NCBI GenBank assembly: GCA_035473115.1
Contig: DATION010000007.1
Span: 1-39,733, forward strand
Origin: Candidatus Udaeobacter sp.
Lineage (GTDB): Bacteria > Patescibacteriota > Patescibacteriia > Magasanikbacterales > GWA2-37-8
Direction: 5' to 3'
Length of the DNA: 39,733 nucleotides
In this document: positions 1-37,678 of the stretch, in pieces
Layout: the number at the start of each line of letters is the position of its first letter
Position numbering within the stretch: position 1 is the stretch's first letter
Program-made: the position numbers and the translations under genes
Notes under the pieces: generated by a model
Told to the model about the DNA's origin: nothing
Seen by the model: only the letters and a program-made list of their open reading frames with translations
The model's database searches: none

Positions 1-135
1 ATGACAGAAAGAGGTGTAATGTGCGGTAAACAAAATTTTGAAGCTGGTGGAGGATCGTCAATTAGGTTTTCAGTAGAATGGAAAGATTTGGAAGATATTT
101 TGAATTTGGAATTGGTAAACAGGCTTCGGGAATAA
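1..135 (+). CDS. Possible 3' end of a CDS entering from the left edge (function unknown)
   Basis: Open frame from base 1 to TAA at 133-135 (...DLEDILNLELVNRLRE*); too short to assign. Confidence 0.4.
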   Translation: MTERGVMCGKQNFEAGGGSSIRFSVEWKDLEDILNLELVNRLRE

Positions 136-279
136 TTTTAACATCTCTTTTTCATTAGCAGAGCAGTGTCCCATTTGTCTAATTTTTTCCTAAAAAATCC
201 CTTTTTGAAAAAATAATTATCTATCTGTCAATTATTGATAAAAATCCAAAAATAACGAAATGTAGATTTTATAAAAACC

Positions 280-303
280 AAAATCCCCATAGCAGGGGAT
301 TTT
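280..303. terminator. Intrinsic terminator hairpin, probably bidirectional
   Basis: aaaatcccc-atagca-ggggatttt, between converging transcription units. Confidence 0.7.
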
Positions 304-406
304 GAGTTAAAGTTTTTTCACTTCAGAGCACCAGTCAAGCCAATAATTTTAGCTGTACTGGTGCATAGCTCCGAAGTGGCAAGGTTGGTTCGGGCTGCAC
401 TCGCTT

Positions 407-541
407 CTACTTGGTATTGGTTTGGGCAGGCGTGCCCGTGCAGCGCTTTCGGCCGCTCTTGCTGTGCTTCCCCTGACCCTTACACTTGGGGCAGTTGGTA
501 TCGATCACGATACGCTGCCGGATGTCGATCTTCTTGGCCAT
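407..541 (-). CDS. 44-aa basic protein with one CxxCxGxG (DnaJ-type zinc-knuckle-like) motif
   Basis: ATG at 541 after an AAGGGAG RBS; MAKKIDIRQRIVIDTNCPKCKGQGKHSKSGRKRCTGTPAQTNTK; own promoter upstream. Confidence 0.65.
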   Translation of the reverse strand: MAKKIDIRQRIVIDTNCPKCKGQGKHSKSGRKRCTGTPAQTNTK

Positions 542-600
542 CGCACGCTCCCTTCGTTCCCCCAGTAAGAGTTGTTGATAGCAGTTTAGGAGAACAAAGA

Positions 601-629
601 ATAATAGCATTTTTATCATATTTTGTCAA
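601..629 (-). promoter_or_regulatory. sigma70 promoter for the 44-aa gene
   Basis: TTGACA-17 nt-TATTAT on the minus strand. Confidence 0.75.
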
Positions 630-681
630 TATCATATATAGTTTATAAATTTCAAATAAAAAGTTTTTTAATTGTTTTATC

Positions 682-792
682 AACTAAAAAAGCCTTTCTG
701 TATAAGAAAGGCTTTTTTAAATTTGTTTTATACATCCGAGCTCGCATAACCTAACAAATTAATTATTAAGTTGTGCGAACGGCTCGGATGTG
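682..792. repeat. 111-bp two-hairpin element, copy 1
   Basis: 105/111 identical to 2406-2516 by manual alignment; terminator-like hairpin plus a long imperfect hairpin. Confidence 0.95.
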
Positions 793-829
793 TCTCTCTG
801 GGCAGTCGCGGCCGCGCGTTGCGATTGAA

Positions 830-1492
830 TCATTCAGCTGGTTGTGTTGCCAACCACACTTCTCGATGAAGTCGTCTGCGCAGCGGTGGGATGAGGGTAG
901 CTACCTTTTCAGATATTAGCAGCATCCAGACTGTGCCCTTGGTCGTTGTGGCATTGGCCCAGTTGTGCCAGCGCCACATACCAAAGTTATCGGAGGGCCG
1001 GCCATGATGCTTTGCATGGAGTTTGGATGGAAACGGTCCGCCCTCATGAGTCCATGCATGACACAGGTCATAGGCTAGAAGACAGGTGAATGCTCCCAGC
1101 AGGAATGCACCACTACCCCAGGCCACAAATCGAAACGAACAGAGTTCGAATCGCATGGCGATGGTCAGCACTATGAACAGGGCGATGCTCGTACCCGCAT
1201 AAAGGGTTCGGAGCGCTATCCAGCGCGGATTCGTTAGGGCAAAGCCGATCGCCCAACCTAGCTTGTTGGCCCATTCTCTGACCGATAGTTTGCGGCGGCA
1301 GGGTGTTACCTCTTGATGGATCTGGCGGTGATGAGCCAGATGATAGGCCCGGTATATGGCTGCAGATGATGGGCATTTTGGCCCACGTTCTACCAACCTC
1401 CCTTTGTGCGCGTAGCGATGCAGCGAAGCGATAGCCACCCCTGACCAGAAGTAGCCAAGTGCCATCAAGCCCAAGATTTTGAAGATCATCAT
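830..1492 (-). CDS. Fatty acid hydroxylase/sterol desaturase superfamily membrane di-iron enzyme
   Basis: Four His boxes HRYAH, HLAHH, HAWTH, HAKHH separated by hydrophobic segments; purine-rich RBS. Confidence 0.75.
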   Translation of the reverse strand: MMIFKILGLMALGYFWSGVAIASLHRYAHKGRLVERGPKCPSSAAIYRAYHLAHHRQIHQEVTPCRRKLSVREWANKLGWAIGFALTNPRWIALRTLYAGTSIALFIVLTIAMRFELCSFRFVAWGSGAFLLGAFTCLLAYDLCHAWTHEGGPFPSKLHAKHHGRPSDNFGMWRWHNWANATTTKGTVWMLLISEKVATLIPPLRRRLHREVWLATQPAE

Positions 1493-1640
1493 TTCTTTCC
1501 TTCCCCTTTTTCAAATTGTTGGTTTATGTGCGAGTAAAGCTAGCAATGCTTATTCATCTTATTTTAAGCACTTTTAGCTTTACTCACAAATATTGTAATG
1601 TGCAATTTTCCTGGTTTTTAAAACGTCAGGAAAACAGTTA

Positions 1641-1669
1641 AATTTACCATATGATAAGCAATTTGTCAA
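1641..1669 (-). promoter_or_regulatory. sigma70 promoter for the hydroxylase gene
   Basis: TTGACA-17 nt-TAAATT with a TG extended -10. Confidence 0.65.
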
Positions 1670-1722
1670 TAGGAATTCAAAAACAGCTTTTATGCTAGCA
1701 AGACCTACTTTGGCATATAATA

Positions 1723-1751
1723 TTGACTTTTATCTATTTTTTGTATATATT
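1723..1751 (+). promoter_or_regulatory. sigma70 promoter for 1771-2208
   Basis: TTGACT-17 nt-TATATT. Confidence 0.65.
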
Positions 1752-1770
1752 CCCGTGCAGGAGGATAATC

Positions 1771-2208
1771 ATGAAAAGGCTAATGCTAGTCATTATCATT
1801 TTGCTTTTGCTGCTAGCGGCAGCTTTGTGGTGGTTCTGGTTCAGAAACAAATGGGTGGAATTGTCACCTACTGACTCAGACCTGGGCGCTTCGGTCCATG
1901 TGGTCCGGGACTACAGCCTCAAGCCGAATGCTCCGCGTAGTCAGTGGGGGTTATGGGTTGTTCTACAGAACCTTGGCCCTGAACCTGTCAATGTGGCTTT
2001 TCGAACGGCAACGAACCATGTTGAGTACAAAAGATCGGTTCAGATCGGGATTGGAGAGATGGTTGCGCTGCGAGTTGGCCCAGAGGATGTGGACTTCCTG
2101 TTTCGGCGAATAAAGCCGGAAGATCCGGAGCCGCTGATGCCGAAGCATGTCGGTCGGTTTACCACGACCGAACTGGAGAAGAAGCATCCGCTGGTTTCTC
2201 GGCTCTGA
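1771..2208 (+). CDS. Hypothetical N-terminally membrane-anchored protein (145 aa)
   Basis: AGGAGG RBS before ATG 1771; hydrophobic N-terminus MKRLMLVIIILLLLLAAALWW. Confidence 0.75.
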   Translation: MKRLMLVIIILLLLLAAALWWFWFRNKWVELSPTDSDLGASVHVVRDYSLKPNAPRSQWGLWVVLQNLGPEPVNVAFRTATNHVEYKRSVQIGIGEMVALRVGPEDVDFLFRRIKPEDPEPLMPKHVGRFTTTELEKKHPLVSRL

Positions 2209-2405
2209 ATATCTCTTCGCGGTTCCTTCGTGGTACAGCAAATATTTGCAGACGCTGTTGTAAAGGCGTCGGCAGATTGATCAGAGAGCGCTTGTCTTTA
2301 TGTTTGAGACGAGCCGCCAAATTCAATTAGGAAAATTCGTAATTGGTGAGGCGAGATTGTTTTCTGGGTGTTTTTATTTTTTATTAATTAAGTGCATTTT
2401 TTAAT

Positions 2406-2516
2406 AACTAAAAAAGCTTTTCTATATCAGAAAAGCTTTTTTAAATTTGTTTTATACATCCGAGCTCACACAACCTAACAAATTAATTATTAAGTTGTGC
2501 GAACGGCTCGGATGTG
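2406..2516. repeat. 111-bp two-hairpin element, copy 2
   Basis: Direct repeat of 682-792, 3' of pyrE. Confidence 0.95.
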
Positions 2517-2586
2517 ATTGTCTGTTTGAGTTGCAAGCTGGTAGCGGGCAGCGCCGTTATCTGGGTATGCGATCGCCGCACATAAT

Positions 2587-3252
2587 TTATTGACTGGCAG
2601 TGAGTATTTCCCAGTTGTCTTTGGGTCGCAGCGCTTGCGAACCTGCTTTGCATAAAGGGCAATCGTTCGGCTTCCAGACAGTCATATCTCTGTTTACCAG
2701 ACTGATTATTTCTCTGCCGTCCGCCTCTTGCTGTCCGGACCAATTCATTAGAGCAGCTACTAAAGGTACTACTTCAGCTCCTTCTTTCATTACCGCATCT
2801 ACTGTCAACTTTACACTGCCAGCAGTAGTGATCGCGTCTTCACAAATTATAACCAGCGGTCTATTGTTTGATAACAGTTGACGCTCCACTTTGTTGAAGA
2901 CCATTTGCCTGAGGTCTCCATCGCCAACTTTTTCCGGAGAAGCCCAGAAACATGGTTGTCCGGTTAGTTGTATTTTCCGGGCACACATGAATTTTGCCAG
3001 CTGTGTGGCTCCGTTTTTAGGGCCAACCACTCCTTTTATTTTGTGGATATCAGTCTTTTGGACAGCAAGCTCAAAAAGATCGCAAGCTGCTTGATATAAC
3101 AATGATCTGTCAATCAATCTGCTGTTAAAATAGCATCCGGAGTGGTTGCCGGATGTAAGCAGCGCGTGTGGGTTATTAGGATTTCCATCATGTATCCATA
3201 AAGCGCCACAGCGCGAATATCTATCAGGCCAGACTGTTCCATTTCCAAACAT
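2587..3252 (-). CDS. pyrE: Orotate phosphoribosyltransferase-like type I PRTase
   Basis: LLTSGNHSGCYFN motif; PRPP-binding loop ICEDAITTAGSV; AGGAGG RBS; divergent from pyrF. Confidence 0.8.
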   Translation of the reverse strand: MFGNGTVWPDRYSRCGALWIHDGNPNNPHALLTSGNHSGCYFNSRLIDRSLLYQAACDLFELAVQKTDIHKIKGVVGPKNGATQLAKFMCARKIQLTGQPCFWASPEKVGDGDLRQMVFNKVERQLLSNNRPLVIICEDAITTAGSVKLTVDAVMKEGAEVVPLVAALMNWSGQQEADGREIISLVNRDMTVWKPNDCPLCKAGSQALRPKDNWEILTASQ

Positions 3253-3395
3253 TTGGTCCTCCTGTTTTTTAGGAATGATTTGGTTGCTAAAAGAATACTA
3301 ACTTAAAATTTAATTAAGGTAAAGACTAGTAATTGACATATTATATATAGTTGCCGTAGGATTATCGTACAACCAAGAGAGGCAGGTAGATCAAT

Positions 3396-4163
3396 ATGGC
3401 AATGATGACTCGGCAAGAAGCTGCTCAGAGAATTTATGTAGCCCTGGATGTTCCCAAAATCGAGCTCGCTGCGGAAGCTGTTGACGAGCTCGGCAACCGG
3501 GTCGGTGGCTACAAGATTGGGCTCGAACTCGGAACGTCCAAAGGCTGGAGCACGGTTCACAATGCGCTTACAGCGCAGGTTCAAGTTTCTGTGTTTGGAG
3601 ACATCAAGATCAAGGATATCCCCAAGACTGCTGGCAGAACGGCAGCTGCACTCATCAGAGGTAATCCCGGTTTCACTTTTTTCAATGTCCATGCCGATGG
3701 CGGCGAGGCGATGATTCAGGCGGCCAGGGAGCAGTCCGAAGCAGTGGCAGTTTCCGAAGGACGGCAGCGTCCCAAGCTGCTCGCCGTGACTGTTCTCACC
3801 AGCCTGGACGAGAGTGATCTCAGTAAGCAGGGCATCGCAGGTTCCACTGCCGATCAAGTCATTCGTCTAGGCAAGCTTGCAATCAGCGCGGGAGCAGACG
3901 GTCTGGTCTGTTCGGCGCGCGAGGTCATGCTGCTCAGGCAAGCTATCGGTCCGGAGCCAATCCTGATGGTGCCGGGCCTTCGGTTGCCAGGTTCAAGCAC
4001 GCGCGATCAAAAGCGTGTGATGGAACCGGGTGAGTTGGTTCGCATCGACCCCAAGGCTTTACTGGTCATTGGGAGCGACATCATGGACAAGTCTCCGGGT
4101 CAGCGTCTGGCTGCCCTAGAGCGAGTGATCGACAATATTATTTTCGGTATCCAACCGGAGTAA
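3396..4163 (+). CDS. pyrF: Orotidine-5'-phosphate decarboxylase
   Basis: VALD, GYKIG, DIKIKDIPKT (DxKxxDIPxT), VTVLTS, PGLR and DQKRV motifs. Confidence 0.92.
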   Translation: MAMMTRQEAAQRIYVALDVPKIELAAEAVDELGNRVGGYKIGLELGTSKGWSTVHNALTAQVQVSVFGDIKIKDIPKTAGRTAAALIRGNPGFTFFNVHADGGEAMIQAAREQSEAVAVSEGRQRPKLLAVTVLTSLDESDLSKQGIAGSTADQVIRLGKLAISAGADGLVCSAREVMLLRQAIGPEPILMVPGLRLPGSSTRDQKRVMEPGELVRIDPKALLVIGSDIMDKSPGQRLAALERVIDNIIFGIQPE

Positions 4164-4188
4164 TAACGAAGTACTTCTTCGCAGACCG

Positions 4189-4240
4189 AACAGCGGTGGC
4201 GAAGATGTTCGCCGGATTTTCGCCATTGCTGTTTTGTTTA
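4189..4240 (+). terminator. Long hairpin terminator after pyrF
   Basis: aacagcggtggcgaagat pairs with attttcgccattgctgtt (G-U pairs favour the plus strand), followed by a T-rich tail. Confidence 0.6.
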
Positions 4241-4315
4241 TAATTTATTTGTAATAAAAACAGCGCGAAAATCTGGTTTATATAAAAGGCGGGAAAGTTT
4301 TTTGGGTGTTTTTAT

Positions 4316-4355
4316 AAAAATAACCCCGCCCTTCGCGAAGGGTGGGGTTATTTTT
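4316..4355. terminator. Bidirectional intrinsic terminator
   Basis: aaaaataaccccgcccttc-gc-gaagggtggggttattttt. Confidence 0.8.
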
Positions 4356-4369
4356 AATTTATTAACTAT

Positions 4370-4738
4370 TTATTTTCCAGCTTTACAGGCATCTCTATCT
4401 GCAGCAGCTTGTTGCTTGGCAGCTTTTAAGACTGCTTTAGCTTCTTCGATTGCAGATCTTTTGTTGGTTCTGGCGGTCTGTACAGCAGCTTTACGTTCTA
4501 CTTTATCAGTTAATTGTCTAGCGGCAGTAACTTCAATTCTAAATCTGGCTTCAGCGTTATTTGCTGCATCGGTAAATACGGCTTCGGCTTCTGCAACAGT
4601 AGCGTCGTGAACTTTTTTGCATTCAGCGGCTGTAGCCTTAGGAGTTACAGCTGTATTTGTGCCGGCAGCCAAAGAGGCCATAGGCAAAGCCATTGTTAGT
4701 ACGGTTGCAAGTAGTAGAGAACTCATTAGTTTTTTCAT
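4370..4738 (-). CDS. Secreted Ala/Lys-rich helical protein
   Basis: Signal-peptide-like N-terminus (…LPMASLA-A); Ala-rich coiled-coil body; two Cys. Confidence 0.8.
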   Translation of the reverse strand: MKKLMSSLLLATVLTMALPMASLAAGTNTAVTPKATAAECKKVHDATVAEAEAVFTDAANNAEARFRIEVTAARQLTDKVERKAAVQTARTNKRSAIEEAKAVLKAAKQQAAADRDACKAGK

Positions 4739-4907
4739 AGATAAATTGGTTATTGGTTTTAGTAAGCTGTCGACCTTTTTTTAAGTTGACTCATTATAGC
4801 ACTATATAAAATAGCGTCAAATGATTTTTTACTGCCTTTTACAGATCTGTAATATATAACAATAAAACACTATATTAGTAGTGTTTTATTGTTTTTTTCG
4901 TACCTAT

Positions 4908-5525
4908 TTATTTTTTCGGATAAAAATAAAGTACACCGCTGATAATGGCTGCGAAAAAACACCAGACCGAAGTAAAATTAATGGCGTAGAAATACCAGGC
5001 TATAAGAGAAAAAATCAGTAACAGTACAGAAAATAATTTTATTATTGTCTTGCTGGAAATAGCACCAACGCCAACAGTGAAGAGAATATATAAATAGCCA
5101 AACAGAGTAGGGTAGGGTGCTAGGTTCGGATAAAAAAGGCATTGATTAATTATTTGCGCCGCTTCCGGTTTTTGTAAAAAAGCGGCATAAAGTATTATTC
5201 CAACTACGGCTCCGCCTAGACAAAATATAGAAATAATAAGTTGCCTAACTTTATTAGTCTCCAGCATTCGTGCTGCCAAAGGAATATAGATTGGCCAAAG
5301 CAGCAGAGCAAAAAATAAATAGATATCTGTCAGAGGTAGAGTGTATGGCCAGTGATTTTTTAGAGATAACCAGATGAGCCCTTCTGCAAATTGTTGGATG
5401 GCAAATAAAAGCGGCACTGCCATTAACATCCAAGCCTTTTTATTTTTGGTTTTGGCTAGAGTGGCTATACCCACAAAACCAATGGCGGCGCTGGCAGAAA
5501 AACTGGCGGTTGCAGAAAAGCACAT
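4908..5525 (-). CDS. Multi-pass membrane protein, DUF6629-like
   Basis: N-terminal MCFSATASF and C-terminal SVWCFFAA signatures; several hydrophobic segments. Confidence 0.7.
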   Translation of the reverse strand: MCFSATASFSASAAIGFVGIATLAKTKNKKAWMLMAVPLLFAIQQFAEGLIWLSLKNHWPYTLPLTDIYLFFALLLWPIYIPLAARMLETNKVRQLIISIFCLGGAVVGIILYAAFLQKPEAAQIINQCLFYPNLAPYPTLFGYLYILFTVGVGAISSKTIIKLFSVLLLIFSLIAWYFYAINFTSVWCFFAAIISGVLYFYPKK

Positions 5526-5716
5526 AAGTAAAATCGTACGTAATAAAATTTAAGCACTTGTTTATTATAGCACTCATTATCAAATTTTACTTCCTTAGTA
5601 TGTTTAAACTTTAACTGGCGGTAACATTTACGGACATTAACCATTTATCTTTAATATTGACAGAATGAGCAATTAATACTATAAAGACCACACACAACCT
5701 CCCAAAGGAGAGTCTT

Positions 5717-6481
5717 ATGGCAAGTTCAAAGTGGCCGGTTGATCCAGTTCCTGTTTCCGAAAGCATCAGCAGCTTGGTACGGCGATCTACAGCAGTTTTT
5801 TGTAAAGCCGATGACTCTTTGATAGGTTATTTTGGCAGTGTTGTTGGCCCGATCGAGTTTTTTCTCAGATGCCTGCCAAAGAATTGTATGACCAAATTGG
5901 TTGTGCATTTCCAGGGGTTTGGGGAAGAAGTTGGTACTATGGTGGTGAACACTAGAGTACAGCTTTGGTCAGGTGAAAATATCGCTCGGCTCACTTTCGA
6001 TGACCCTCAACCGGATCTTAGGTGTCTGGGAGGAGGGCCGAATTTCTGGAGTCCGTTTATTATCGCCATTGCCTGTGCGCATGAAAACGCGCCGGTTTGT
6101 TTCCACAAAGATGGTGATGCTAGCAAGTTCATTTCACTTGCCAGCGATCTGTCTTTCATGCCTGTGGGTGTGGTAGAACTGCTGAAGCAGTATGAGAAGG
6201 ATATCATATACGATGCTCACAGTTTTGGTACCAAGGTTCAGCGCTCCGATGCTGGCAAGCAGATTTTGGCCTTTGGACTGCAGGCGTTGCCCAAGATACT
6301 GTCATATCTTGGGGCGAATCCACCAACAGAAGAAGAGGTGAGTCGCGCTTGGGCAAGCATTATCAGCCGTATCGCTGTTAGTCACAAGCTTCATAGCCCT
6401 CACAACCTGCTGCTTAACTTGTCAGCATGGACTGATTGGGCCAAGAATGTTATTTCTCCCGCTCCTGTTCAAGCGCTCTAA
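5717..6481 (+). CDS. Hypothetical protein (254 aa)
   Basis: Long ORF, AAAGGAG RBS, upstream TTGACA at 5657-5662, terminator downstream; no motif recognised. Confidence 0.75.
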   Translation: MASSKWPVDPVPVSESISSLVRRSTAVFCKADDSLIGYFGSVVGPIEFFLRCLPKNCMTKLVVHFQGFGEEVGTMVVNTRVQLWSGENIARLTFDDPQPDLRCLGGGPNFWSPFIIAIACAHENAPVCFHKDGDASKFISLASDLSFMPVGVVELLKQYEKDIIYDAHSFGTKVQRSDAGKQILAFGLQALPKILSYLGANPPTEEEVSRAWASIISRIAVSHKLHSPHNLLLNLSAWTDWAKNVISPAPVQAL

Positions 6482-6502
6482 ATACAGTTGAGCCTTGGGG
6501 AT

Positions 6503-6576
6503 AAAAAATAAGCCACTCTAACGTCACTATATTTTCATGATTTGAAAGTTTGGTGACGGGTGGCTTATTTTTTTTT
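6503..6576 (+). terminator. Extended hairpin terminator
   Basis: aaaataagccact/ggtggcttatttt outer stem with inner cgtcac/gtgacg stem, then a T run. Confidence 0.7.
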
Positions 6577-6703
6577 GGCAATACTTAAAAGCAAAAGATG
6601 TTGATTCGTATGCGTGAATCTTTTTTATATTTTTTATTTTGTTTGACAGTCTATATATTTTATAGGTAGCATAAAATAAGAAACCAAAAACAAGGATGGT
6701 ACA

Positions 6704-7351
6704 ATGTCGCGAAATAACAGAGCGCAGGTTTTACTGCTCGTATCATTTTTTCTGCTAAATATTTTTGGGCAGGCGCGAGCAGATAACAAGCCAGTTTTCA
6801 AACTGCCGCTTCCAGCTGGTTTCGCTTGGCGGGTTCATACTATGGTTGGCGGCAAGTGCGGCCGTAAATGTTATAACCGACATCATTCAGATAAGAAAAA
6901 CGGTTATTACGCAATTGACTTGAACCCCATAGTGAAATCCGGAAACGAAATAACATTGGTCGCCGATGGAGAAGAGGGGATGGTAGATGTTTTGGCTGCG
7001 GCTGATGGAATTATTATTGAAGCTGTCAGTGCACCTTGTCACAATCGTGGTCCGATTTGTAAAGTTGTCATTGACCATGGCAATGGTTACACAACTACGT
7101 ATTTGCATTTAGCCGAGAATAGTTTGGCAGTTGAAGTTGGAGACAAAGTTCGGCAAGGACAGGTAATAGCCGAGATGGGCAATACCGGTCCGTCAGATGG
7201 AACACATCTCCATTTCCAGGTAAGCTATAAGGGTGGCAGCAGATCTAATCTATCAGAGTTGAAAAGTATTACTTTAGAAGGCATTCGTTTATCAGATTTT
7301 CAAACCGGCTCTTTCTATATATCAACTAACGTTTCACCTCAACCTCTCTAA
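6704..7351 (+). CDS. Secreted M23 family metallopeptidase (peptidoglycan hydrolase)
   Basis: Signal peptide; H...YAID, YLHL, GNTGPSDGTHLHFQV zinc motifs. Confidence 0.9.
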   Translation: MSRNNRAQVLLLVSFFLLNIFGQARADNKPVFKLPLPAGFAWRVHTMVGGKCGRKCYNRHHSDKKNGYYAIDLNPIVKSGNEITLVADGEEGMVDVLAAADGIIIEAVSAPCHNRGPICKVVIDHGNGYTTTYLHLAENSLAVEVGDKVRQGQVIAEMGNTGPSDGTHLHFQVSYKGGSRSNLSELKSITLEGIRLSDFQTGSFYISTNVSPQPL

Positions 7352-7395
7352 TTTTTTGATGAAGAGAGTGTAAAGATAAATGTTAAAAACAACCC

Positions 7396-7414
7396 AGCTG
7401 GCCCAAAGCCAGCT
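7396..7414. terminator. Terminator hairpin between the convergent M23 and S9 genes
   Basis: agctggc-ccaaa-gccagct with T-rich flanks on both strands. Confidence 0.55.
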
Positions 7415-7442
7415 TTTCCATTTGAAAAGAAGTAATTATTTT

Positions 7443-7500
7443 TGCTTTTCGTCCTGCGATGTTTGTGGACTCATCAGTTTTGGTCTCACCAAAAGAAGCA
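7443..7500 (-). ncRNA. Type III hammerhead ribozyme
   Basis: Minus strand: UGCUU-C^-UUUUGGU gag ACCAAAA-CUGAUGA-GUCC acaaacaucgca GGAC-GAA-AAGCA; all core positions and stems I-III match the consensus. Confidence 0.9.
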
Positions 7501-7588
7501 CATTGGAGAGTGGCAAGACACTCTCCGGGCCGACGACTGAACTCATCCTTGCAGTCTCGCTCTTGGCGAAGCTATGAGTTTGTGTTGC

Positions 7589-9664
7589 CTAGTCCAGACT
7601 TTCCAGCCATTTCAGCAAGGCAGGTAAGTATTTGTACTGCCCCGGTGTTTTATAGCCATGGCCTTCACCAGGCAGAATTAGGCATACGACCTGTTTGCCC
7701 ATGGCAATAGCTTTGTAGCAGAAGTTAAGTGTCTCGTCAGTCGGAACCCTATTATCGGATCCTCCTGCGTCGAGAAACAGCGGAACGCTCAGCAGATCAA
7801 TGTGGTTTATCGGAGATCGGTCGTTCCACTTGTCGATGATTTCCTTCGGCCACTTGTCCGGATCTTTGTCTAGATCCGCAAATTTCATAAGGTCCTTGTA
7901 CCAGAGTCGAATGTTTCCGTTCTTGAGGGCGTTGATGAGATCAGAAATTCCAAAATCACTCCACCCGAACCCAAACTGGAAACTTTCGGTTATGCCGTCG
8001 ACCTGGCCTGGGAAGGTTAACGCGCGTAAGGTGTCATAACCCCCGCGGCTACCCCCGAACACTCCGATCTGTTTGTTTGGTACCTTGAGGTAATTAGCCA
8101 GCCATTTCCCGGCCTTCAGTGCATCAAGCGTTTCCATTCCTCCCAAATCACCATATCCCATAGTCTGGAATTTGATGCCAAAGTCTGTGGTACCTCTTGG
8201 AGCCGGACTCATTACATAATATCCGGCAGCGCACAGAATTTGGAAGTAGGTATTCCATCTGTTGAACCCACCGTAAAACGATAGGACCATGCCTTTTTTG
8301 TTGGCGCCGGTCTGTGGGTTTTTGGGAGAAAGGAGGTAGGCATGGAGTTGACCGTTTTTTTCTCCTTCGACTTCAGGCCTGTTCTCGCTTTTTGAGTCGG
8401 AAGCATCGAAGCTTACTTTTTGATAAGTACATTGCCGGAGTTGGTTTAGTAACTCCGGCGGATATCCACCGCGGTCAAAGACTTTGATCTGGCCGTCAGT
8501 GATGACAGCTTCTCGTTGGGTAAATGGATCATCCAGAGCACTTGTATAGAACCCAATTCTGCTCCCGCCGTAGTCGTCAATAGTAACTGTTCCAGCAAAT
8601 TCCTTGCTATCTACAACCTTGCCGTTTGTCCAGTCGATAGACATCAGGCTAGTCCGGAGAGGATTTCCCTCCAGGCCAATCACATATACCTTGCCGCTAG
8701 GTTGGCGGATAGCTATGGCGTCTTTCATGTTTTTGCCAGGTGGAGAAACCAGCCTGGTTTTACCACTCGTGAGGTCATATGCGTACACCAGAGTCTCGTC
8801 TGTATCCTCATCCGTAGCGAATAAAAAGTGAGACGCATCAGGCCACTCGTTGAGTGGATACATGTCGATCCGCTTTTTACTGGTATCACTAAGAACTCTC
8901 GGTTCTCCGCTGCCGTCCAAGGGAATGTAGATCAGGTTGTTTCTCTGACGGTCACTGTTAGCCACGAACTGAACTACGAGAGCTTTTCCATCAGGACGCC
9001 AAGCTGGTCCACCCCAGGTTAGTTTCATACTGGGAGGTGAGTCGCGGTACACAACCCGTTCGCTGTAGTTACTTAAGTCTAGAATATAAATAGCTCCTGA
9101 TGAAGCTTCGTCTTTGGCAGAGCGGCCAGTGTACACCAGAGATCGACGGTCCGGACTTACAGTCAAGCCGTATACGTAATACACACCCTCGCCGGTAATC
9201 TTACGCTCTTCTCCCGTTTTGAGGTCGAGAGCATAAAGTACTTTGTTCTCATCATTGACCTGGTCGGCCAACATGATGATCTCTCCGGGACGTTGCGGAT
9301 TACAGAATGCTCCGCCAAAGTTCCGTTTGGCAAAGTCGCGCGGAGAAATAATCCTCCCCTTGCTGAAATCGACCCGCTCTTCGCTGCGCGGATCGAATTT
9401 CACCATCATCAGCCGTTCTTGTTCTCCCTTGAGTTTGTAAAACATGGCTCCACAACCGATGTCCACGATTGGAGCGGTGTAGGGCCAGCCCTCGAGGTAG
9501 GCGGTGAGGTTGATCTCCCTGTTTCCTTTGAAATGGAAGATTTTATCCGGCGGCTTTCCTGTTGCTGCCGTGCTGGCAGTCGATTGCACTGGGTGGATGG
9601 AGCAGGCGGAAGCTAGCCCCAATACCCCTAACAACAACACTAACGCAAAATTCACTTTTCTCAT
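7589..9664 (-). CDS. S9 (prolyl oligopeptidase family) serine peptidase lipoprotein with a TolB-like beta-propeller
   Basis: ATG 9664 after AGGAGG; lipobox LASAC; GGSRGG nucleophile elbow, DNRV and GEGH triad motifs; SPDR/RPDG propeller repeats. Confidence 0.88.
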   Translation of the reverse strand: MRKVNFALVLLLGVLGLASACSIHPVQSTASTAATGKPPDKIFHFKGNREINLTAYLEGWPYTAPIVDIGCGAMFYKLKGEQERLMMVKFDPRSEERVDFSKGRIISPRDFAKRNFGGAFCNPQRPGEIIMLADQVNDENKVLYALDLKTGEERKITGEGVYYVYGLTVSPDRRSLVYTGRSAKDEASSGAIYILDLSNYSERVVYRDSPPSMKLTWGGPAWRPDGKALVVQFVANSDRQRNNLIYIPLDGSGEPRVLSDTSKKRIDMYPLNEWPDASHFLFATDEDTDETLVYAYDLTSGKTRLVSPPGKNMKDAIAIRQPSGKVYVIGLEGNPLRTSLMSIDWTNGKVVDSKEFAGTVTIDDYGGSRIGFYTSALDDPFTQREAVITDGQIKVFDRGGYPPELLNQLRQCTYQKVSFDASDSKSENRPEVEGEKNGQLHAYLLSPKNPQTGANKKGMVLSFYGGFNRWNTYFQILCAAGYYVMSPAPRGTTDFGIKFQTMGYGDLGGMETLDALKAGKWLANYLKVPNKQIGVFGGSRGGYDTLRALTFPGQVDGITESFQFGFGWSDFGISDLINALKNGNIRLWYKDLMKFADLDKDPDKWPKEIIDKWNDRSPINHIDLLSVPLFLDAGGSDNRVPTDETLNFCYKAIAMGKQVVCLILPGEGHGYKTPGQYKYLPALLKWLESLD

Positions 9665-9902
9665 TGCGATCCCTCCTGGGACATGTGTTACGTGGACTCT
9701 CCACGCAGAAGAACTAGATAGAACATTTCTTTCCAGCCTCCTTATTAACTTCAACAAAGTAAATTAGTTAAAATTAAAAAGAAAGCCAGAAGCTGAAATT
9801 GATTGTAAAAGAACAACGTTTTACACTAGCAAAAATTAAGCTTTGTGTCAATGAAAATCATAATTAAAATTTTTAGGATAAATAATTTTTAACAAACTAA
9901 AT

Positions 9903-9920
9903 ACCGCCATCGCTGGCGGT
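9903..9920 (-). terminator. Terminator hairpin downstream of the 9935-10232 RNA candidate
   Basis: accgcca-tcgc-tggcggt; T-rich tail on the minus strand. Confidence 0.55.
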
Positions 9921-9934
9921 AGTTTGTTGGAAAA

Positions 9935-10232
9935 GGAGCCGGTGGGTTATGTCCGGCAAATTTGTCACAAAATTATTTTGGCACCAAGAAGTGCTCTCGG
10001 CTACCTGGCTCGGAAACACCCGCCCTTCGGCTCTCACTATGTGACCTACACCTTACACCTACATAATTTTGTGGAACAACCCGGTTGTGGCTCAATGGCC
10101 AAGCGTGAAGCTAGTGTTTAAGTCACCCAACTTGATCAGAGATCAGGTGACCGTGTCCCGACAGAATACGAGCATAAGATCGACAGGGCCGATCCCATCT
10201 TGTTGCTCGCAATCAGAACACAACTTCATGCT
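9935..10232 (-). ncRNA. Candidate ~300-nt structured ncRNA, family unknown
   Basis: GC-rich intergenic tract with nested helices (gtgttctga/tcgggacac, gcgagca/tgctcgt, gtcacc/ggtgac, gagcc/ggctc, cacaaaattat/ataattttgtg); G-U pairs favour the minus strand. Confidence 0.6.
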
Positions 10233-10362
10233 AGAAATAAGTTCAATGAATAGTCCGGTAAGTGTCAAGTTGTAAAATTTATAGTCAGATAAGAATGGTC
10301 TTTTATATTTTTTTAAAATGATATATAATATGCTGACTAAATTAAAGTTAAGCAAATAAATT

Positions 10363-10713
10363 ATGCAGGACATTCAAGAAATTTTTAATCGCATGCAGGA
10401 GATTAAAAAGAAACAAAAAGATATCCGCAGCGCCTATAAGGAAGCTTTAGAGGCTTCTTTGGAGTACAAAGAAATTAACGACAAAATTAAAACTTTGAGA
10501 GAAAGAAAAAAACAGATTGAAAATGTGACCAAGGAATCTTTTTCCGGAGAGTTTACTAAATTAGATGATCTAAAGATAGATTTGGAGTCAGACAGCGTGA
10601 TGCTGAGTGATATTGCTCTGAATAAATTAATGAAAGGGGAGACCGTTCAGGTGGTGGATGAATATAACAATAGTTACGAACCTCTGTTTACCGTAAAGTT
10701 CAAAAAAACTTAA
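10363..10713 (+). CDS. Hypothetical coiled-coil protein
   Basis: 116-aa charged helical ORF with host-like codon style. Confidence 0.8.
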   Translation: MQDIQEIFNRMQEIKKKQKDIRSAYKEALEASLEYKEINDKIKTLRERKKQIENVTKESFSGEFTKLDDLKIDLESDSVMLSDIALNKLMKGETVQVVDEYNNSYEPLFTVKFKKT

Positions 10714-11183: not shown

Positions 11184-11286
11184 ATGATTATTAATTATAC
11201 CAGATTAATTTTAGTAGGCAAATTATCGGTAGTTTATTTCTTTATTTGGTATAAAAGTTGGCGGTGGATAACTTTTGCTAATTATC

Positions 11287-11315
11287 TTGACGCAAGATTA
11301 TATCAGGTATATGAT
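11287..11315 (+). promoter_or_regulatory. sigma70 promoter for the candidate sRNA
   Basis: TTGACG-17 nt-TATGAT. Confidence 0.75.
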
Positions 11316-11321
11316 AAAAAT

Positions 11322-11437
11322 ATCAGAGAACTTAGTTCGATGGTAAAAGTAGCGGACCCCACAGCCGCCATCAAACCTCAACTAAACTTCTCTCCCACCC
11401 AGCAAAAGACGAACTTCGGTTCGTCTCTTAATTTTTT
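11322..11437 (+). ncRNA. Candidate ~115-nt sRNA
   Basis: Own promoter; rod agagaa/ttctct, ttagtt/aactaa, gatgg/ccatc, gcgg/ccgc; terminator agacgaac-TTCG-gttcgtct plus T run. Confidence 0.65.
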
Positions 11438-11453
11438 ATATTAAAGTTTTTAT

Positions 11454-11992: not shown

Positions 11993-13522
11993 CTATTTTG
12001 CGTATTCAACAACGCGAGTTTCGCGAATAATGGTAACGCGAATTTCTCCAGGATACTGTAATTCCTGTTCAATTTTGCGAGAGATATCTTTGGCTAATTG
12101 GAAAGCAGAATAGTCATCAATTTCATTTGGTTTAACAAAGACGCGCACTTCGCGGCCAGCTTGGATGGCATAAACTTTATCAATGCCTGGGAAGCTGCTG
12201 GCAGTTTTTTCCAAGTCTTCCAAACGGCCAACAAATTGTTCGTAACTATCTTTGCGAGCGCCGATTCTGGCTCCAGAAATTGCATCAGCTGCTTTGGCGA
12301 TAGTGGCATATATATTGTAGGCTTTGTCTTGGTGGTGGGTAAGCGCAGTTTGGCAGATATCTTCATCCATATTGAACTTTTTCAAGATCATATGGCCGAT
12401 TTCCGGGTGGGAACCTTGAGTTTCCTGGTCTACAGCTTTACCTATATCGTGGAAGAAGCCACATTTTTTGGCATGAGCAGCATTCAGTCCAAGTTCACTG
12501 GCAATAGTTGCGGCCAAGTAACCAGTTTCCATAGAATGCAAAAGTATATTTTGGCCATAGCTGGTGCGGTATTTTAAGCGACCAACAATGCCGACTAGTT
12601 TTGGATCAATTCCGGTAATACCCATTTTGTAGAGAGCTTCTTCGCCAGCTTTTTTAATATCCAAAGCCAGATCTTGTTTAGCTTTTTCCACAAATTCTTC
12701 AATGCGAGCCGGTTGAATGCGGCCATCAGCCATTAATTTTTCTAAAGCCAACTTGGCAATTTGGCGGCGGATAGGTGAGAAGCCAGAAACGATAATAGTA
12801 TCTGGAGTATCATCGATCACGATTTCACAGCCAGTTAATTTTTCAATAGTTTTAATATTGCGTCCTTCTTTTCCGATAATGCGTCCTTTCATATCTTCGC
12901 TAGTCAAATGGACAGCGGTCGAAGTGACTTCAGCGGCATGAGAAGAAGCGCAGCGCTGGATAGCGTCGGTGATCAGATCACGCGCTTTGGCATCATAGAC
13001 TTCAATTGATTCTTTTTCTAATTTCAAAACTCTAGCCATCAAGTCGCTCTTGCTTTGCTCCTCAACTCTTTTGAGCAATTCGTTTTTTGCTTCTTCTTTA
13101 TTTAGGCTGGCCAGTTCTTGCAGTTTAACTATTTCCTGGTCGCGCATCTTTTCTATTTCTTGTTTGACTTGCTGTACCTTGTTGGTCTGTTCCTGAAGTT
13201 TATTTTGATTATTTTGCAGCTCTAACAATTTTTGGTCGAACATGGCTTCGCGTCTTTCCAGTCTTTCTTGGACGGTATGCAGTTCTTGACGAACAGTTTT
13301 TTCTTCGCGCTTAGCTTCGTCAATTAATTGGGCAGCTTTTTCTTTGCCCTGCATAACGATTTCCTGCTGCTGATTTTTTGCTTCAATCAGCATTTTTTCT
13401 GCCTTGGCTTCAATGGAGTTAGCCTGGGCTTGCGCTATCTTTTTACGAAAAAAATAGCCTAAAGAAAAGCCTGCGCCGGCGCCGACTATAATGGCCAGTA
13501 TGGCCAAAAGGTAGTTGCTCAT
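11993..13522 (-). CDS. rny: Ribonuclease Y
   Basis: N-terminal TM, coiled coil, KH (GRIIGKEGRN), HD domain (YRTSYGQN..HS, FFHDIGK), C-terminal YAIQAGREVRV. Confidence 0.97.
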   Translation of the reverse strand: MSNYLLAILAIIVGAGAGFSLGYFFRKKIAQAQANSIEAKAEKMLIEAKNQQQEIVMQGKEKAAQLIDEAKREEKTVRQELHTVQERLERREAMFDQKLLELQNNQNKLQEQTNKVQQVKQEIEKMRDQEIVKLQELASLNKEEAKNELLKRVEEQSKSDLMARVLKLEKESIEVYDAKARDLITDAIQRCASSHAAEVTSTAVHLTSEDMKGRIIGKEGRNIKTIEKLTGCEIVIDDTPDTIIVSGFSPIRRQIAKLALEKLMADGRIQPARIEEFVEKAKQDLALDIKKAGEEALYKMGITGIDPKLVGIVGRLKYRTSYGQNILLHSMETGYLAATIASELGLNAAHAKKCGFFHDIGKAVDQETQGSHPEIGHMILKKFNMDEDICQTALTHHQDKAYNIYATIAKAADAISGARIGARKDSYEQFVGRLEDLEKTASSFPGIDKVYAIQAGREVRVFVKPNEIDDYSAFQLAKDISRKIEQELQYPGEIRVTIIRETRVVEYAK

Positions 13523-37100: not shown

Positions 37101-37138
37101 AATAATAAAAGCAGCTTTGATTAGCTGCTTTTATTATT
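37101..37138. terminator. Bidirectional terminator
   Basis: aataataaaagcagc-tttgatta-gctgcttttattatt. Confidence 0.85.
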
Positions 37139-37678
37139 TTCTCAAGCTCTTTCCAAGAAAGGGATTAAGAAATGATAGGCGAAGGTTTGCGGTCCCTTCG
37201 CCTTTACTGCCGATCTCTATCGGTATATCTCTTGATGGAACGCACCGTGGTTGCGTTCGTTTTTTTCTAGGCCTTACTAGCCCTAGGGAACATGCCTCAA
37301 GTTGGCAGCTCCGCAGCCCCATGCTGCTATCCTGTTTTTTGCGATCCTGATGAAACTAGAGAAGCAATCCTTATACCGTTCAAGTTGCAACGGCTCGCTG
37401 GGGATTGTTTGGAAGCTTGGGGTGCTTCCCTCTGTTTCATTTAGTTTTCGTGCCTACAATCACCTTTGCTCTGCAGAGCACAAACGTTTCACCGTTTCTC
37501 TGTCGCTGTGCCTTCAATCAGAGCGCTGTGACCTTTTATACATCATTGCCCACGGGCAATAATTTGGTGTAGGGCGCTGTTCACTCCACCATTTATATTG
37601 ATAATTTTTTATCCGTATAAACGGTGGAGTGATTTTTTTATTAGTTTCTTCAAAGAACTTTTCGTTTCTTTATCTTAA
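37101..37678 (-). ncRNA. Candidate large (~575 nt) highly structured ncRNA, family unknown
   Basis: Own near-consensus promoter and terminator, no credible ORF, more than ten hairpins or long-range helices. Confidence 0.7.

Follow-up and report, generated by a model that had tools for sequence, protein, structure and literature searches.

A species-specific GC-rich block in a gene-replacement hot spot of a Magasanikbacteria chromosome, possibly a remnant of acquired DNA

Between the divergent promoters of an S9 peptidase gene and of the gene o116 we found a GC-rich, hairpin-bearing block of about 400 bp that is species-specific and lies in a gene-replacement hot spot of a Magasanikbacteria chromosome. 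The stretch of DNA analysed, referred to as the window, comprises 39,733 nt (39.7 kb). A sequence-only reading had proposed an unannotated multi-domain RNA of about 300 nt here, transcribed from the minus strand and carrying a tandem-repeat loop that might serve as a template. Its coordinates and quoted sequences were correct throughout when checked by direct reading of the DNA, but we found no support for a unit of several RNA domains with a template loop at this locus. The reading that we tentatively prefer, with a little less than even confidence, is that the block is a species-specific remnant of acquired DNA, in which the terminator is the working part and insulates the peptidase promoter. 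That the block is foreign, that it has no function of its own and that the terminator insulates the promoter are all inferred. No relatives of the block were found in the searched collections and it is absent from the nearest sister genomes, which makes an acquired scrap likelier than a new multi-domain RNA.

Position and composition of the block

The block (roughly 9880-10275) occupies part of a 606-nt gap between the S9 peptidase gene on the minus strand and o116 on the plus strand, and is bordered by the native promoters of these two genes (Table 1). The candidate forms an island of approximately 50% GC amid intergenic DNA of 30% GC. In comparison to the relative L003, the window contains about 400 extra bases between the divergent promoters, which consist of the terminator, a 300-nt GC-rich stretch and an AT-rich edge with a TTGACA hexamer. 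A second copy of the block was not found within the 39.7-kb window. GATC sites cluster in the hairpins, which is not unusual because the peptidase gene contains a denser cluster.

Table 1. Positions of the features discussed, numbered along the window.
Feature	Position	Strand	Description
S9 peptidase gene	7589-9757 (mechanical ORF)	minus	true start ATG 9664
S9 peptidase promoter, native	9808-9851	minus	TTGACA-N14-TGCTAGTGT then ACGTTGTTCTTT
Bidirectional intrinsic terminator	9895-9928	both	core stem 9902-9921, extended palindrome 9886-9933
Candidate relic ORF	9924-10275	plus	TTG 9924 frame open to 10121; second frame open 10045-10275
3' segment (158-nt domain of the sequence-only reading)	9928-10101	minus	ends can pair through gagcc/ggctc and the 11-bp helix
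31-codon ORF	ATG 9949	plus	10 nt 3' of ribosome-binding site AAAAGGAG
Exact 11-bp inverted repeat	arms 9966-9976, 10063-10073		CACAAAATTAT / ATAATTTTGTG
7-mer tandem duplication	10047-10060		TACACCT on plus, AGGUGUA on minus; core of the repeat loop
Y-shaped 5' domain (predicted)	10102-10232	minus	closing helix 10232-10222/10112-10102, rod 10221-10153, hairpin 10152-10121
-35-like hexamer TTGACA	10263-10268	minus	direct reading
o116 promoter	10302-10329	plus	TTTATA-16-TATAAT; other edge of the insert
o116	10363-10713	plus	well-conserved 116-aa gene, unknown function
RNase Y gene	11993-13522	minus	

Past o116 the gene order continues with DUF1003, HU and RNase Y, and this synteny (RNase Y - HU - DUF1003 - o116) is common to the relatives. 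The RNase Y of the window showed 84% identity to that of Candidatus Magasanikbacteria RIFOXYD1_FULL_40_23 and 71-82% identity to its counterparts in a dozen further MAGs of Magasanikbacteria and Patescibacteria, which identifies the window as part of the chromosome of a candidate-phyla-radiation bacterium. On the other side of the gap, the start of the S9 peptidase gene is marked by a ribosome-binding site (AGGAGG) and a signal peptide of the lipoprotein type, and an upstream ORF of 12 codons has an AAGGAGG site of its own at 10-nt spacing. The exact peptidase protein and the exact o116 protein were each found on a single contig only. With 50% GC in surroundings of 25-35%, and with nearest relatives that are only 41-47% identical and reside in gene contexts unlike Patescibacteria loci, the peptidase gene is foreign-looking in its sequence. 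Genes with 50-57% GC, among them a pyrF-like and a phosphoribosyltransferase-like gene, form a patchwork over the first 10 kb of the window in a genome of about 35% GC. A high GC content in this genome is at least as good an indicator of foreign origin as of RNA structure.

GC-rich intergenic regions in AT-rich genomes are the basis of published screens for non-coding RNAs (GC-IGR, PMC8632094). As this approach is outlined there, the candidate resembles its targets as an extended intergenic region whose G+C content far exceeds that of the DNA around it, but it differs in that the candidates of that screen were accepted after comparative analysis, whereas here no homologue was found. The GC excess of the candidate is equally well explained by foreign origin, because the neighbouring acquired genes have the same GC content.

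The slot upstream of o116 differs in every relative, and the block is absent from all of those examined. L003 and L083-86, whose o116 is 97% identical, have at about 55 nt from the o116 promoter a divergent promoter (TTGACA…TGCTAaTaT…ACGTCGTTCTTTACA) that is homologous to the peptidase promoter of the window and drives an unrelated, markedly GC-rich gene of 187 aa. Unrelated AT-rich DNA is found upstream of o116 in L108 (94% identity). The block is also missing from L087/88, with an o116 identity of 91%; in L087 and L089 (91% and 90%, respectively) the slot is occupied by a conserved small-RNA gene, and this sRNA-like element showed no similarity to the candidate. L090 and L091 (91% each) encode a Fic-family gene at this position, and L004 (79%) an HU paralogue followed by DUF6629. 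In L087, L089 and L090 the neighbour of o116 has the same orientation as o116. The o116 promoter block itself (tatataatatgctgac) is kept in L003, L087, L089, L108 and L109.

Predicted fold and transcription signals

The Y-shaped 5' domain is the sole robustly predicted fold of the putative minus-strand transcript. Its closing helix joins rod and hairpin into a three-way junction of 131 nt in total, with UAAACACU as the unpaired J3/1 strand. The predicted minimum free energy was -55.2 kcal/mol on the minus strand (z = -5.9 against shuffles) and -42.9 kcal/mol on the plus strand (z = -4.4), and pair probabilities of the helices ranged from 0.82 to 0.99. A rod with several G-U pairs had been described before, and we recovered it with 28 pairs in three helices at mean pair probabilities of 0.96-0.99. 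Since 7 of the 28 pairs are G-U, only an RNA from the minus strand can form the rod well. The gtcacc/ggtgac hairpin seen by the same reader was likewise predicted (11 pairs, P 0.82).

For calibration we folded 130-nt segments of positions 1-7800 on both strands. Among segments wholly inside genes 1% reached z <= -4.4 and none of 204 reached z <= -5.9, whereas among mostly intergenic segments the corresponding fractions were 23% and 12%, with extremes of -9 to -10. The other intergenic regions of the island contain terminators and long extra hairpins, and hairpins with z between -6 and -10 are common there. The 5' domain is therefore unlike coding DNA yet ordinary for intergenic DNA of this island. 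We also observed that a 110-nt element occurs twice among the intergenic regions of the island.

The fold of the remaining candidate was far less convincing. Over the whole 346-nt minus-strand stretch (10240-9895) the predicted energy was -120 kcal/mol (z = -3.5 to -3.6), and the only end-closing helices were the one closing the 5' domain and gagcc/ggctc. In the 158-nt domain that had been proposed for the 3' segment the ends can pair, but its minimum free energy of -49.4 kcal/mol equals the shuffle mean of -49.0 (z = -0.1; z = -1.0 on the plus strand), and the small hairpins placed inside it had pair probabilities of only about 0.2. The 11-bp helix is exact, and so long a perfect inverted repeat occurred in 1% of dinucleotide shuffles (p ~0.01); it is A/U-rich, and the region that it encloses is still poorly folded. 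The sequence GUAGGUGUAAGGUGUAGG (10062-10045) in this region had been taken for about 2.5 imperfect copies of a 6-7-nt unit. An exact two-copy tandem of a 7-mer is indeed present, but a run of at least 7 at the same lag was found in 19% of shuffles. In the RNA sense this loop holds three AGGU(G) motifs that resemble Shine-Dalgarno sequences. With a 3' half no more structured than chance, the proposed multi-domain architecture found no support.

The signals at the two ends of the candidate were unequal in quality. A TTGACA hexamer followed by a poor -10 had been noted upstream, and both points are correct: the hexamer at 17-nt spacing is TGAACT (10245-10240), with 3/6 matches and no A at position 2. 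This site is absent from the promoters listed by our scan of the window and does not fit the TTGACA-N14-TGCTAnnnT form of the window's strong promoters, to which its two clear promoters belong. A usable pair of sigma-70-type -35 and -10 hexamers was therefore lacking from the candidate as an sRNA unit. At the 3' end, by contrast, the intrinsic terminator expected of such a unit is present, as had been claimed, with an 8-bp stem including 5 G-C pairs (9921-9902, P 0.97) and the tail TTTAGTTTGT; it is strong and scored on both strands. Like other bidirectional Rho-independent terminators it consists of a G+C-rich 8-bp stem and a 4-nt loop with A-rich and T-rich flanks, and we found no difference from them within this part, which makes up only 34 of the about 335 nt of the candidate. 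Positions 9895-9928 are an ordinary Rho-independent bidirectional terminator. Between this terminator and the peptidase gene sits the peptidase promoter (9827-9851 plus a TAGTGT box), whose homologue in L003 drives a different gene.

The idea of a template-like segment had been put forward together with the remark that the window encodes no reverse transcriptase. The remark holds, as Pfam scans covering the neighbouring ORFs together with every ORF of at least 150 aa detected no RVT domain, although some of the scanned ORFs, including two large ones (715 and 502 aa), had no Pfam match. The same scans of the flanking ORFs and all ORFs of at least 150 aa showed no integrase, transposase, Cas, IscB or TnpB. 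Neither a reverse transcriptase nor another RNA-guided or RNA-templated enzyme was thus found among the window ORFs that could use a template or guide RNA, and this leaves the template idea without support. Retron msr-msd and other RT-template RNAs share with the candidate a structured non-coding stretch of a few hundred nt with a short repeated segment, but no RT gene was found in the 39.7-kb window and no retron family model matched. We rejected this identity because of the missing adjacent RT gene and the missing Rfam retron match. Several other identities were also discarded. Hammerhead and T-box readings were rejected by eye and found no support in Rfam, and an attC reading was rejected by eye. 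A REP or MITE element was dismissed as there is no second copy in the 39.7-kb window and there are no terminal inverted repeats, and a flanking 12-nt direct repeat was not accepted as a target-site duplication, since we estimate that such a repeat is expected by chance in AT-rich DNA.

Searches for relatives and coding potential

We screened the whole window with cmscan (Rfam 15, gathering mode) and obtained four tRNAs only. In a permissive search of positions 9750-10400 (E up to 10) the only matches inside the candidate were 'RNAI' with 16 bits (47 needed) and COG2908 with 12 bits (58.7 needed), and the former corresponds to the terminator. ARAGORN made no tmRNA or tRNA call for the candidate. 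As judged from these sequence and model matches, the candidate is not a member of any Rfam family, be it RNase P, 6S, SRP, tmRNA, T-box, riboswitch, ribozyme, intron, retron or omega RNA.

Homologues in other genomes, which would have allowed covariation to be counted, were not found by any of the routes used. Neither nhmmer nor blastn with a 356-nt query gave a match in 109 loci (1.3 Mb), which comprised 80 RNase Y neighbourhoods from GTDB genomes as well as relatives of the S9 peptidase and neighbourhoods of o116. A single-sequence covariance model of the 5' domain, run against 48 loci, found only itself. No match was obtained by blastn against plasmid and phage collections, and seven scans of viral contigs for exact patterns returned nothing or chance matches. 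One metagenome scan with the 18-nt loop, in a collection that does not hold the window's own contig, yielded 16 matches, all of them by chance or in other tandem repeats; the similarity extended over no more than about 18-28 nt at the pattern, and several matches lay in unrelated tandem repeats. A Logan contig from run SRR9656165 was 100% identical to window positions 763-2464, which lie outside the candidate. Owing to this complete identity it represents the same strain and offers no variation.

The plus strand of the block is unusually poor in stop codons. Stops per frame number 1, 6 and 1 on the plus strand and 4, 9 and 4 on the minus strand. A strand on which two frames have no more than one stop each was seen in 1.3% of shuffles (p = 0.013). 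The two long plus-strand ORFs overlap exactly at the 7-nt duplication, and deletion of 7 nt at 10047-10053 creates a single stop-free stretch of 122 codons (114 from TTG 9924). An open stretch of this length occurred in 2% of shuffles (p ~0.02), a value to be read with the fact that the frame restoration was noticed post hoc. Slipped-strand tandem-duplication pseudogenes are similar in that an exact 7-bp duplication lies in the ORF overlap and its removal restores the frame, but the restored product here shows neither a homologue nor codon bias nor a predicted fold, and the statistical support is modest (p = 0.02) and post hoc.

The codon score of the restored ORF was 1.8. Real 300-nt pieces of the peptidase gene scored 14-35 in 12 of 13 cases, with 5.6 as the lowest value, while antisense frames of real genes reached low positive scores similar to that of the restored ORF. 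Its GC content by codon position is atypical in the second half, and an AlphaFold2 model computed without an alignment had a pLDDT of 34. No match to the relic ORF was found in Pfam or PHROGs, and a six-frame concatenated protein query against 5.8 billion clusters gave nothing at E <= 10. An exhaustive phmmer search with the 76-aa frame against 1.8 billion representatives returned only two matches, both repeat-boosted, with scores derived from five or six repeat copies in the target protein. An ORF of 28 aa (MKLCSDC...), which had been named as the entity that might be conserved instead of an RNA, had no relatives in the protein search.

Explanations for the block

We propose that a foreign-looking block of about 400 bp was inserted between the o116 and S9 peptidase promoters at a hot spot of gene swapping. 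The block might be a decaying, horizontally acquired remnant, i.e. hairpin-rich non-coding sequence that possibly includes a small ORF of the plus strand, interrupted when slippage duplicated 7 bp. The terminator at 9895-9928 would then keep transcription that begins within the insert or reads through it from arriving at the peptidase promoter, and activity of the weak TTGACA promoter might yield an RNA of about 335 nt from the minus strand. Most acquired DNA is coding or the debris of coding sequence, and the stop-depleted plus strand (p = 0.013) with its 122-codon frame after de-duplication (p = 0.02) is consistent with such an origin. So are the GC content of about 50% shared by block and peptidase gene, the absence of the block from the relatives' slot, the failure to find a family or homologue, the chance-level 3' half (z = -0.1), the poor -10 and the general abundance of hairpins in the island. 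Evidence against a remnant comes from a 5' domain with z = -5.9 whose seven G-U pairs work only on the minus strand and whose stability was matched by none of the 204 coding segments, an 11-bp helix unlikely by chance (p = 0.01) and a good terminator exactly at the expected end of a minus-strand transcript. Also, a GC content of 50% kept in a setting of 30% could mean constraint and not youth. The relic ORF of this proposal lacks a protein homologue and a Pfam or PHROG match, has a codon score of 1.8 and a pLDDT of 34, and was recognized post hoc.

A rival explanation is an orphan sRNA gene on the minus strand, starting near 10232 from the TTGACA promoter and ending at the terminator near 9895, which we consider possible but rather doubtful. 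In such an RNA the predicted Y-shaped 5' domain would give stability or a protein-binding surface, and the loose, G/U-rich 3' part with its three AGGU(G) motifs would be free to pair with C-rich or anti-Shine-Dalgarno-like sequences. This explanation draws on the GC-rich island in AT-rich intergenic DNA, on the 5' domain (z = -5.9 on the minus strand and weaker on the plus strand, seven G-U pairs), on the exact 11-bp helix, on a perfect -35 box combined with an intrinsic terminator, and on minus-strand frames that are all filled with stops (4, 9, 4). It suffers, however, from the lack of a homologue and hence of covariation to count, from the absence of the block at this slot in all sister genomes examined, from a -10 box without the key A, and from a 3' half with chance-level structure. 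Predicted pairing of the candidate with the conserved C-rich sRNA of the window was no better than that of shuffles, similar hairpins are frequent in the island, and the plus strand is depleted of stops (p = 0.013). Known island-encoded orphan sRNAs are defined by detected transcripts and targets. The candidate resembles these trans-acting RNA genes as a stand-alone non-coding stretch on apparently acquired DNA with a promoter-like box, hairpins, a terminator and no outside relatives, but it was read from sequence alone, has a poor -10 and no evident target, and with about 335 nt would be at the long end of their size range. A more elaborate version, in which a regulatory RNA of about 335 nt, gained horizontally and restricted to this lineage, uses the Y domain as a scaffold and exposes the triple AGGU(G) as a decoy for C-rich partners, appears quite improbable to us; the partners would be the anti-SD tail of 16S rRNA or the C-rich sRNA.

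Another rival is a small protein gene on the plus strand, either a live ORF of 31 codons or a 114-codon gene recently broken by the 7-bp duplication, with the hairpins located in or after the coding region. The site AAAAGGAG lies 10 nt before ATG 9949, the same spacing as that of the AAGGAGG of the peptidase upstream ORF, two plus frames have at most one stop (p = 0.013), de-duplication yields a single 122-codon frame (p = 0.02), and in L087, L089 and L090 a gene stands next to o116 on the same strand. We nevertheless regard such a gene as unlikely, given that no homologue or family match was found, that codon score and pLDDT (34) are low and the GC content by codon position in the second half is atypical, that the hairpin at 9902-9921 leaves no space for a promoter ahead of the start, and that coding DNA here seldom folds so well (1% of segments at z <= -4.4). 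A DNA-level element, be it a site of recombination, one end of a mobile element or one of a set of palindromic repeats in the island, would fit a hot spot in which cargo genes are exchanged while the promoter over them is conserved; other palindromic repeats do occur in the island. This seems most improbable, though, since the window has no second copy, no terminal inverted repeats and, as far as was found, no integrase or transposase; the 12-nt flanking direct repeat is expected by chance by our estimate, and the seven G-U positions would be A-C mismatches in a plus-strand DNA hairpin. Finally, the peptidase ORF is preceded on its own strand by a structured segment and then a terminator, an order that recalls a cis-regulatory leader (riboswitch, T-box or attenuator) that would control the peptidase gene via the terminator. 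The likelihood of this is close to negligible: a separate promoter, conserved with L003, lies between terminator and gene, whereas a leader would share one transcript with the ORF and use the terminator as its switch, no riboswitch or T-box model matched, no antiterminator alternative was seen by eye, and the relatives of the peptidase gene have no similar sequence upstream.

If the block did encode a true RNA, it would be among the very few experimentally approachable non-coding RNAs of the candidate phyla radiation and would illustrate how an RNA gene can be acquired horizontally. The locus also calls for caution: where an AT-rich genome takes up foreign genes of higher GC content, a GC-rich intergenic block with hairpins is by itself no evidence of a structured RNA, and half of the proposed fold was no better than chance. 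The more useful products of this analysis are two features found beside the block. One is the hot spot itself, where different foreign genes are set under one conserved promoter. The other is a truly conserved, covarying C-rich sRNA at 11322-11437, located 1.1 kb from the candidate.

A conserved, probable small RNA close to o116

In the vicinity of o116, the conserved 116-aa gene, we found an element that looks like a genuine, so far unannotated sRNA of Magasanikbacteria (coordinates of this and the other features are listed in the table). Homologues in four relatives were recovered by nhmmer with E-values from 1e-22 to 8e-67, and either o116 or DUF1003 was always encoded nearby, with the position of the small-RNA gene varying between loci. 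The promoter block, GTGGATAACTTT…TTGACG-N17-TAyGAT, was almost invariant, and its first part (GTGGATAACTTT) resembles a DnaA box. The RNA begins with AUCAGAGAACUUAGUUCGAUGG and forms a hairpin in which a compensatory change was seen (GCGG/CCGC vs GCAG/CUGC), followed by single-stranded sequence rich in C and A (CAAACCUCAAC…) and then by a terminator that also carries compensatory changes. Overall, 7 of the 24 predicted pairs showed covariation (n=4 sequences). The RNA itself had no match in Rfam.

The mechanically called ORF 'o86' (11184-11444) is overlapped by the small-RNA gene.

Features in the window and in relatives (L003, closest relative at the o116 locus; L083, L087 and L089, further relatives)
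Feature	Location	Strand	Remarks
Conserved small-RNA gene	window 11255-11440	+	RNA itself ~11322-11437
Copies of the small-RNA gene	L083 6528-6678; L087 5789-5927; L089 2920-3051; L003 14534-14745	L003: -	
Common promoter and 5' start region	window 9808-9851; L003 15292-15340	window -; L003 +	TTGACA-N14-TGCTAnTnT…ACGTyGTTCTTTaCA
Hairpin, 47 nt	L003 15176-15222		~70% GC; CCCGCCGTTTGCTTGGCGCAAACGCGCAGGGATCCCCGGTGGGGG in o116 sense
12-codon upstream ORF	window 9688-9726	-	MFYLVLLRGEST; within peptidase 5' leader
44-codon ORF	window 407-541	-	CxxC…C motif (MAKKIDIRQRIVIDTNCPKCKGQGKH…); in GC-rich patch
Two-copy intergenic element, ~110 nt	window ~690-800 and ~2400-2510		~90% identity between copies
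Stretch of 430 nt	window 37161-37640	+	49% GC

Exchanged cargo behind a shared promoter

The region adjoining o116 is a hot spot in which the cargo has been exchanged and the promoter kept: in the window the TTGACA-N14-TGCTAnTnT promoter drives the S9 peptidase gene, and in L003 the same promoter drives an unrelated high-GC gene of 187 aa. The peptidase starts at ATG 9664 (minus strand), with a lipoprotein-type signal, and not at the TTG at 9757. The short upstream ORF in its leader, with a ribosome-binding site (AAGGAGG) stronger than any other in the region, ends in a small hairpin, CGTGGA…TCCACG.

The 47-nt hairpin of L003, inserted between the o116 promoter and the o116 start codon, is one more case of a small GC-rich insertion in this neighbourhood, besides the GC-rich block of the window.

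Other segments towards both ends of the window

Genes of 50-57% GC form a mosaic with AT-rich spacers in the left quarter of the window (1-10300), within a genome of ~35% GC. They encode pyrF-like OMP decarboxylase, phosphoribosyltransferase-like and fatty-acid-hydroxylase-like proteins and the S9 peptidase, and with the exception of DUF6629 in L004, a further relative, they were not found in the relatives' RNase Y neighbourhoods. A promoter of the form TTGACA-N14-TGCTA (605-629), together with a ribosome-binding site, lies ahead of the 44-codon ORF; after the ORF come a 3' region that is GC-rich and a terminator. Each copy of the ~110-nt element consists of a terminator and then the hairpin ACATCCGAGCTCrCAyAACCTAACAAATTAATTATTAAGTTGTGCGAACGGCTCGGATGT, and the two copies are break points of a short-read contig from the same strain.

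Near the right end, the 430-nt stretch contained neither a convincing ORF nor an Rfam match. It is flanked on one side by a bidirectional terminator (37107-37133) and on the other by a terminator-like hairpin (37582-37640), and directly downstream lie a perfect and a near-perfect DnaA box, TTATCCACA at ~37776 and GTTATCCAC at ~37812.
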